64,000 bases of DNA from Candidatus Norongarragalinales archaeon (GCA_038884755.1 JAWABJ010000001.1:636953-700952), one strand, 5' to 3'. Shown: positions 49,061 through 49,719, counted from the stretch's first letter. Notes: generated from the letters alone by a model not told the origin. Program-made: numbers and translations.

Positions 49061-49645
49061 TCAGGGGAATAACGCAATCATGTTGGAAAGTCTCTCAAAC
49101 TTTTCTGGATGAAAAGAATGAATTAACGAGTGAAATTTTTTCAAATTCTCTCGTCTTGTTATCCTGAACTGCCAAGCTTCACTCGTAAAAGTCAAGTTTG
49201 TTGGCCGGAATTCTTCGCTTAAGAAAAAATTTCTTAAGAATTCCAGAGGTTCTCTTCCTTTCTGGTCGAATGAAACACACGTTTGGGTTGAATGCTCAGG
49301 ATCTAAAGGCACTCCGCCTTCAGCATCGAAAAAACCGCCGGCATAACACCACAATTCTCGCGGTGTTGCATTGCGAACCGATTCGGGCGTGTTCCAAAAT
49401 TCCTGCGGACAAACGTATCCAGAAAGAGAAACTAACTCTGAAATTGTTTTCTTGCCGTTCAACCTCAAGAGATTATTTCGAAGCCTGCATGAGACTCCGA
49501 AATTCCTTTCGATTATTTCGGCAAGTTTTTCCAGCCAAGCCTCGGACTTTTGATAAATCCGCAATTCGTAATTTTTGGAATCGCGGACTTCGAAGCTGGC
49601 GTCACGGAATGCTCCCAAAAGATAGCACAATTCAGCGTTCATCAT
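49061..49645 (-). CDS. double-motif LAGLIDADG homing endonuclease; stop codon UGA straddles the 3' splice junction
   Basis: Motifs LLGAFRDAS and GGFFDAEGG; 194 aa. Confidence 0.75.
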   Translation of the reverse strand: MMNAELCYLLGAFRDASFEVRDSKNYELRIYQKSEAWLEKLAEIIERNFGVSCRLRNNLLRLNGKKTISELVSLSGYVCPQEFWNTPESVRNATPRELWCYAGGFFDAEGGVPLDPEHSTQTCVSFDQKGREPLEFLRNFFLSEEFRPTNLTFTSEAWQFRITRRENLKKFHSLIHSFHPEKFERLSNMIALFP

Positions 49646-49719
49646 TGGCTCGCACTGAAGCGCGCTTTAAATGTTTTTTGAGAGTAGCTTTCCAGTGTTA
49701 TTTGATTGCGCTATTCCTT
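49062..49719 (-). mobile_element. archaeal BHB-type intron in 16S (between AAACUUAAAGG and AAUUGGCGGGGG; E. coli ~919) carrying a LAGLIDADG ORF
   Basis: ~35-nt imperfect terminal inverted repeat (GGAAUAGCGCAAUCAAAUAACACUGGAAAGCUACUCUC / GAGAGACUUUCCAACAUGAUUGCGUUAUUCC); exon 1 ends in G (not U) and ORF fills intron, arguing against group I. Confidence 0.7.

Follow-up and report, generated by a model that had tools for sequence, protein, structure and literature searches.

The rRNA operon and its insertions

Rfam covariance models place an archaeal rRNA operon on the minus strand of the window, the whole 64,000-nt stretch of Candidatus Norongarragalinales DNA that was analyzed, with the 16S gene (~50647 to 48232) followed by a tRNA-Ala gene and then by the 23S gene (47722 to ~43040). 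Numerous insertions interrupt both rRNA genes. The two that concern us most are an intron of 659 nt in the 16S gene (49060..49718, minus strand) and one of 740 nt in the 23S gene (43332..44071, minus strand), each of which bears the gene of a LAGLIDADG endonuclease.

Elsewhere in the operon there are two genuine matches to group I introns, at 48284-48500 (51.8 bits) and 44996-45270 (27.2 bits). The former is an ORF-less intron on the minus strand near the 3′ end of the 16S gene (Rfam RF00028), with the boundaries GUCGU^AAACUU...ACAUG^AACAAGG, such that the 5′ exon ends in U and the intron in G. Its position is that of the SSU/1498 introns described from Micrarchaeota (PMC6125680), and it causes the cmscan match to the 16S rRNA to stop at 48443, the true 3′ end lying near 48232. 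The latter match, which is sub-threshold, belongs to a 23S insertion at 44996-45567 (minus strand) carrying a LAGLIDADG_1 ORF of 176 aa. A further insertion of 204 nt in the 23S gene (44190-44393, minus strand; UUCAU^...^AUCGAC, around E. coli position 2500) has no ORF and no Rfam match, and its last base is not G. Short insertions of 50-52 nt were also seen, one in the 16S gene (~49951-50002, minus strand), where GAGUAAA is repeated at the edge, and two in the 23S gene at model positions ~2455 and ~2848; these may be expansion segments or mini introns of the protein-spliced bulge-helix-bulge (BHB) kind. Directly downstream of the 23S gene, a 319-aa ORF (41965-42924, minus strand) contains a DGQHR motif (VDGQHRIAGL), which suggests a DndB-like or DGQHR-domain protein. 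An MmeI-type methyltransferase gene lies nearby in lineage L015, and a defence island may adjoin the rRNA operon.

Site and junction register of the 16S intron

Read along the minus strand, the 16S rRNA runs ...GAUUGAAACUUAAAGGAA, then the insertion, then UUGGCGGGGGAGCACCAC. The ~659-nt insertion, detected against the Rfam SSU_rRNA_archaea model, sits between ...AAACUUAAAGG(AA) and UUGGCGGGGG; it starts with AGGAAUAGCGCAAUC... and ends with ...GAUUGCGUUAUUCCCCUGAA. The first-pass annotation was therefore right that an intron splits the 16S rRNA within conserved sequence. In our own numbering, anchored on G926, the insertion follows E. coli position 919 (GGAA^...^UUGG), in keeping with the 'locus 919' at which 16S introns of Crenarchaeota and Aigarchaeota have been described (PMC4496867). 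The cmscan alignments place the insertion a few bases off, and a run on the whole window truncates both rRNAs at introns; the junctions were set by hand and by comparison with relatives.

The exon AA at positions 918-919 is repeated as AAA at the 5′ end of the intron, and three registers (49720..49062, 49719..49061 and 49718..49060) yield an identical mature RNA in the window. The intron had earlier been placed at 49062-49719, which equals none of these three and, at odds with the junction described along with it, would give GGAAAUUGG. Homologous 16S introns were collected from ten distinct lineages through a protein search, with more from metagenomes, and all of them lie at the same site. Their last six bases read CCU(G/A)A plus one variable base. 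Most lineages have A here, L006 and L026 have G, and L007 and L041 have U. The intron of L007, which is the window's closest relative (83% amino acid identity), ends CCUGAU^UUGG, and those of L006 and L026 end CCUGAG^UUGG; in these three lineages the canonical GGAAUUGG is restored solely by GGAA^intron^UUGG. Since GGAAUUGG is universally conserved and the last intron base varies among the relatives, the register is 49718..49060.

This register decides where the stop codon of the endonuclease ORF lies. The UGA (49061..49063, minus strand) is wholly intronic and is followed by one more intron base (49060). A UGA straddling the junction, with UG in the intron and A in the exon, had been proposed, and this is true solely in the 49720..49062 register, which the relatives exclude; the split stop codon is a product of the ambiguous junction and not real. 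The U and G of the UGA are the last two bases of the 3′ strand of the BHB helix H, and the A opens the 3′ bulge. The ORF closes with (C/U)CC-U(G/A)A, of which CCU pairs with the exon AGG in H. Longer 919 introns, with ORFs that terminate 60-187 nt earlier, keep CCUGA as well, indicating that the UGA is an inherent part of the BHB and does not owe its position to the ORF. In a compact subfamily (~630-680 nt, at least 13 lineages), the ORF runs on until it meets this BHB UGA. We also considered that the stop codon might force the A.R mismatch in helix H described below, and rejected this because CCUGA persists where the ORF ends earlier.

BHB structure and intron class

Around the junctions, the exon strand AAGG (49721..49724, minus strand) lies opposite the intron CCUG (49065-49062) to form the central helix H. 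Its pairs are AU, GC, GC and a non-canonical A.R, which is A.G in the window and A.G or A.A among the lineages, and its exon strand is invariant in the ten lineages. H is flanked by a 3-nt 5′ bulge AA^A (49718..49720, minus strand, cut after 49719) and a 3-nt 3′ bulge AA^U (49059..49061, minus strand, cut after 49060). The second base of the 3′ bulge varies among lineages (A, U or G), and U920 is invariant. Helix h of the 16S intron comprises 3 bp (UUA/UGG). Helix h′ comprises 14 bp, formed by 49717-49704 with 49079-49066; its 5′ arm GGAAUAGCGCAAUC (49704..49717, minus strand) was recognized through the repeat search and covariation, and its 3′ arm GAUUGCGUUAUUCC (49066..49079, minus strand) doubles as code for the C-terminal ..IALF(P) of the endonuclease.

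In the junction alignment of the ten lineages, 93.6% of the h′ cells are paired, 12 of the 14 h′ pairs show compensatory changes, and none of 500 shuffles reaches the observed covariation score. For the BHB, 91% of cells are paired in the same alignment, versus 37-54% in slid controls. The terminal inverted repeat that had been noticed at first sight is likewise real: an inverted-repeat search returned 49066-49080 with 49703-49717 (15 nt, 93% complementary), and the helices UGGAAAG/CUUUCCA and CUCUCAAA/UUUGAGAG, predicted by RNAfold, lengthen it to ~30 bp.

The cut rule was fixed by requiring a canonical mature 16S rRNA in all lineages. Only a cut after the second base of both bulges gives this result, restoring GGAAUUGG in every lineage, and the other registers fail in L006, L007 and L026. 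That a single workable rule exists across lineages supports both the BHB motif and the register. Two tRNAs in the window (29509-29598 and 27631-27491) were tried as calibrators of the cut rule and gave relaxed or ambiguous BHB folds. The second of them (27491-27631, minus strand; 141 nt, Rfam 46.3 bits) has the anticodon UUC (Glu) and an intron of ~66 nt at 37/38, was overlooked by ARAGORN, and has a BHB that looks relaxed. The first (29509-29598, plus strand) is called Glu (CUC) by ARAGORN and reads better as a tRNA with the anticodon CAU (Met or Ile2) and a 16-nt intron after position 37.

The A.R pair in H makes the BHB of the 16S intron relaxed rather than strict 3-4-3. The epsilon2 EndA of Candidatus Micrarchaeum ARMAN-2 cleaves both strict and relaxed BHBs in vitro (PMC3239211, PMC3488258), which lends indirect support to the predicted cleavage of the 16S junctions by the EndA of the host.

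An alternative classification is that the 16S insertion is a group I intron, like others in the rRNA genes of Micrarchaeota. The same operon does contain group I introns at 48284-48500 (51.8 bits) and 44996-45270 (27.2 bits), and group I introns have been reported at LSU/2593 in Micrarchaeota (PMC6125680). Against this, permissive local Rfam scans gave no match to Intron_gpI at E<=10 in 48900-49900 or 42600-44700, nor any Rfam match at E<=10 to a self-splicing ribozyme core in the 16S or 23S intron regions. The ORF occupies 89% of the 16S intron, and the non-coding part, 76 nt in the 16S intron and 96 nt in the 23S intron, is too small for a ribozyme core. The last base of the 5′ exon of the 16S intron is A where a group I intron would have U, and the last base of the intron itself is A where a group I intron would have G. 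Together with the covarying BHB architecture, these observations led us to reject the group I reading, which we regard as extremely improbable, and to uphold the earlier assignment of the intron to the BHB type.

The endonuclease gene of the 16S intron

The homing-endonuclease CDS extends from the second of two ATG codons to the last codon before the UGA (49064..49642, minus strand; 193 aa), with an alternative ATG at 49645 (194 aa). The ORF (49645/49642..49061) matches Pfam LAGLIDADG_3 (PF14528) in two stretches and contains the two motifs YLLGAFRD(15) and GGFFDAE(109)GG, whose catalytic D15 and E109 are invariant among homologues. The double-motif LAGLIDADG ORF reaching the extreme 3′ end of the intron, as described in the first-pass annotation, was thus found as such. 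Homologues of the protein are 44-83% identical to it, and the comparison between the window and L007 gave a dN/dS of 0.105, indicative of purifying selection. A single-sequence search of the PDB sequences with the 16S-intron protein gave no match, and NCBIfam holds no family for it. The family profile, when compared with PDB sequences, matched I-DmoI (5e-8) and 2dch (5e-8), and also PI-PfuI and the chain 3e54. The entry 2dch is deposited as a 'putative homing endonuclease' and 3e54 as an rRNA intron-encoded endonuclease; we take them to be the Thermoproteus rRNA-intron enzyme I-Tsp061I and I-Vdi141I, respectively.

By these measures the gene is intact and under selection, and its product is an intact single-chain, two-motif LAGLIDADG enzyme of the I-DmoI type. 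From its family membership and the purifying selection we infer that the enzyme would cleave the intron-less allele site-specifically, that is, act in homing. In word-indexed protein searches, relatives were found solely in Micrarchaeota-type contigs, and the homologues of the intron proteins with a named source all come from Candidatus Micrarchaeota MAGs; on this basis the window is most likely part of a Micrarchaeota (DPANN) genome. In some lineages (the 16S intron of L008, and L028/L045), the ORFs are broken by frameshifts or premature stops, while the BHB and the TATA-like box are kept; these look like recently decayed HEGs.

A paralogous intron in the 23S rRNA gene

The 740-nt intron of the 23S gene (43332..44071, minus strand) has a strict hBHBh′ structure, in which H is formed by GUCG (44077-44074) with CGAC (43337-43334), the bulges are CG^A and AU^A, and h′ comprises 15 bp (44070-44056 with 43352-43338). 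The 16S and 23S introns share the 5′ region CACUGGAAAGCYACUCUC...AUUUAAA and their proteins are 30% identical, indicating that the two introns are paralogues; the relationship proposed earlier on first inspection is thereby borne out.

The LAGLIDADG ORF of the 23S intron (43274..43975, minus strand) encodes 233 aa from a GTG start and has no stop within the intron. The start at GTG 43975 (MNEEIAYLIGALRDG) is conserved and lies six codons before the first motif, as it does in the 16S family. The ORF continues into the 3′ exon, which holds its final 18 codons and the UAA (43276-43274); the stop is 55 nt in, just before the sarcin-ricin loop sequence. In the window the exon-encoded tail is ...GDIDSSVASFRIVWPLEGKDR, and a tail of the form DSSVAS.R.V...EGK is common to at least 12 homologue lineages, down to 58% identity. 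At the other end, no stop interrupts the frame for 55 codons upstream of the 5′ junction, as far as 44236, and part of these 'exon' codons falls in the 204-nt insertion at 44393-44190. In-frame stops occur 0-30 nt before the conserved start in L017-L020, and the open frame across the 5′ junction is accordingly a lineage-specific product of chance. Of the earlier proposal that this ORF is open across both splice junctions, in frame with 56 upstream and 18 downstream exon codons, the 3′ read-through and its 18 codons stand as a real and conserved feature; the openness at the 5′ junction is fortuitous, and the upstream codons number 55, some of them contributed by the insertion.

Two further observations were made among the 23S relatives. 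The distantly related 23S intron of L020 does have an endonuclease stop codon that its 3′ splice site splits, a UAA with UA in the intron and A in the exon (~2150-2160). In L016 (~2200-2215) and L018 (~2197-2212), an extra interruption lies inside the sarcin-ricin loop region (GAGUAC^ACGC...), marking another intron site, which is absent from the window.

A conserved promoter-like element upstream of the start codons

We examined the region between the 5′ splice site and the start codon, whose length varies from 42 to 97 nt among the 16S-intron lineages. In the window, the 16S intron contains a TATA-like box, TTTAAAGC (49664..49671, minus strand), the first T of which is 29 nt upstream of the ATG at 49642. 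An A-rich stretch in front of the box is a possible BRE. A [CT]TTAWW hexamer begins at -29 to -31 from the homology-defined start codon in all ten 16S-intron lineages, even though the flanking sequence has diverged, and in six of the ten it is the sole such hexamer in the whole intron. The 23S intron has a TATA-like box as well, TTTAAAAG (43999..44006, minus strand), 31 nt upstream of the GTG at 43975, and in other members of that family (L015, L016 and L018) the TATA-to-start spacing is 29-31 nt. The LAGLIDADG_1 gene of the 23S group I intron is similarly preceded by TTTAAAAG at 45589, 28 nt before its ATG at 45561. A Shine-Dalgarno-like GGTGG is also present at that gene.

We also scored 34 distinct intron-HEG lineages for hexamers that consist of A and T alone and include TA. 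Such a hexamer begins at -29 in 18 of them and at each of the neighbouring positions, -30 and -28, in 15, and the count falls to about zero between -60 and -38 and between -21 and -15; the A+T content peaks at 0.82-0.85 at -28 to -24. L029, a GC-rich lineage, has no obvious TATA box. No conserved Shine-Dalgarno motif was found before the start codons, either in the ten 16S-intron lineages or in the 34 intron-HEG lineages. A terminator is not evident downstream of the 16S-intron ORF. The host genes in the window showed a weak signal at -30 in a rough TATA survey that relied on noisy ORF calls.

Archaeal promoters that drive leaderless mRNAs have, as standard, a TATA box centred ~26-27 nt ahead of the first base of the start codon; GTG, which the 23S ORF uses, is the weaker leaderless start. 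The TATA spacing and the lack of a conserved Shine-Dalgarno motif together suggest that these endonuclease genes have promoters within the introns, from which leaderless mRNAs are made. Leaderless mRNAs beginning with AUG or GUG are normal in several archaea (PMC4983044). On the question raised in the first-pass annotation, which RNA species is translated, the 16S sequence points to the very outcome that was there set against the initial reading, namely a promoter in the intron together with an in-intron stop. The mRNA of the 23S-intron endonuclease must extend beyond the intron, since the stop codon of its ORF is in the exon.

The classical view of such genes is a different one. Archaeal rRNA introns are circularized after excision, and in D. 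mobilis, according to review literature, the intron circle is the mRNA of the endonuclease (PMC11724312). The endonucleases of the window could likewise be made from the intron circle, from a linear excised intron or from the pre-rRNA, and the position of the stop at the junction would then reflect this. Reading around a circle would supply a stop in both cases, leaving the 16S ORF at 193 aa and ending the 23S ORF after 237 aa, and the UAA across the 3′ splice site of L020 fits the same idea. We nevertheless consider translation from these RNAs unlikely: they offer no conserved Shine-Dalgarno motif and no visible signal for internal initiation; the last ~13 codons of the 16S ORF, which double as the 3′ arm of the core helix, would be locked in the terminal helix of the precursor; the 23S intron, if excised in linear form, would be an mRNA with no stop codon; and the 16S stop does not straddle the junction. 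Moreover, the conserved TATA spacing tracks the start codon and not the intron 5′ end, which is 42-97 nt away. It is also conceivable that the A/T hexamer at -29 is an RNA structural, protein-binding or translation-enhancing element rather than a promoter, given that it sits just beyond the 5′ arm of the rod-like core of the intron and that the host genes in the window give only a weak comparable signal. We regard this as quite improbable, since the hexamers TTTAAA, TTTATA, TTATAA and CTTAAA match the archaeal TATA consensus, their centre lies at the standard TATA-to-start distance, and the element is kept in three unrelated contexts, namely the BHB intron of the 16S gene, the BHB intron of the 23S gene and the group I intron of the 23S gene.

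A model for splicing, expression and mobility

On the sequence evidence, the locus is probably best explained as a mobile archaeal BHB intron at 16S position 919 that carries a homing endonuclease and expresses it as a leaderless mRNA from an internal TATA promoter. In the pre-rRNA, the exon AAGG would pair with the intron CCUG between the two 3-nt bulges, and the covarying 14-bp helix would join the intron termini. The tRNA-splicing endonuclease of the host would then cleave both bulges behind their second base (GGAA^A..., ...AA^UUGG), and RtcB would ligate the exons and probably circularize the intron. The LAGLIDADG enzyme, by cutting intron-less 16S rDNA, would allow the intron to spread. 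Its gene would be transcribed from the TATA box within the intron, and the resulting leaderless mRNA would lack the 5′ half of the BHB, could not be spliced and would continue into the downstream exon. Translation of the 16S ORF would end on the UGA built into the CCUGA of the BHB, 1 nt before the splice site, and the 23S paralogue, having no intronic stop, would use the one that lies 55 nt into the exon. An unspliced mRNA that enters the 3′ exon could explain why the stops of these genes are found at the intron end in the 16S intron, across the junction in L020 and within the exon in the 23S intron.

Relation to known introns and implications

LAGLIDADG-encoding BHB introns at position 919 are already known from Thermoproteales, Desulfurococcales and Aigarchaeota (PMC4496867), and these share with the present intron the site, the junction BHB, the nested LAGLIDADG gene and the length (~650-750 nt). 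The 16S intron of the window differs from these crenarchaeal and aigarchaeal 919 introns in that its host most likely belongs to a DPANN (Micrarchaeota) lineage and in that its ORF ends on the BHB UGA. The I-DmoI intron of the Desulfurococcus mobilis 23S gene is likewise an archaeal BHB rRNA intron that encodes a single-chain two-motif enzyme (~194 aa; profile E=5e-8), inserted in another gene and at another site. Its expression has been described from circular intron RNA (PMC11724312), whereas the sequence of the window points to an internal promoter and a leaderless mRNA.

Mixed intron types in the rRNA genes of Micrarchaeota are also known: Nawrocki et al. 2018 (PMC6125680) reported rRNA genes of the same phylum with both group I and BHB introns, and the operon of the window mixes the SSU/1498-type group I intron and the LAGLIDADG_1-bearing one of the 23S gene with BHB introns in a like manner. 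That study characterizes the group I introns, and the BHB introns are merely co-occurring features there; the intron near LSU/2593 is of the BHB type in the window and group I in PMC6125680. Neither the conserved promoter spacing across BHB- and group I-borne HEGs nor the conserved rRNA-exon-encoded tail of the 23S enzyme was found described in the literature searched, older primary papers lying outside the search.

Among the group I introns of phages and organelles there are homing endonuclease genes that have promoters of their own, and the ORF of I-PpoI reaches into the exon. These systems resemble the present one in their splicing-independent expression and in a frame that crosses an intron-exon boundary; they differ in intron class, splicing chemistry and domain of life, and the overlap in our case is with the 3′ exon of an rRNA.

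The 16S intron interrupts the 906-934 region used for 'universal' primers, and the operon is a case in which gene callers yield proteins with rRNA-encoded tails. How a protein gene buried in an rRNA gene is expressed is an old question for archaeal introns, for which the circular-mRNA idea is still cited. The TATA spacing, the lack of a Shine-Dalgarno motif and the stops at or beyond the 3′ splice site lead to a concrete prediction, namely a primary 5′ end at the start codon. We lean, by a modest degree, towards the view that archaeal rRNA-intron HEGs, whether borne by BHB or group I introns, are generally autonomous TATA-promoter cassettes whose leaderless mRNA runs unspliced into the rRNA exon. 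If this is true, both the BHB and the exon would be possible places for their stop codons, protein tails encoded by rRNA would result, and translation from the excised circular intron, the classical idea, would not hold for such elements.
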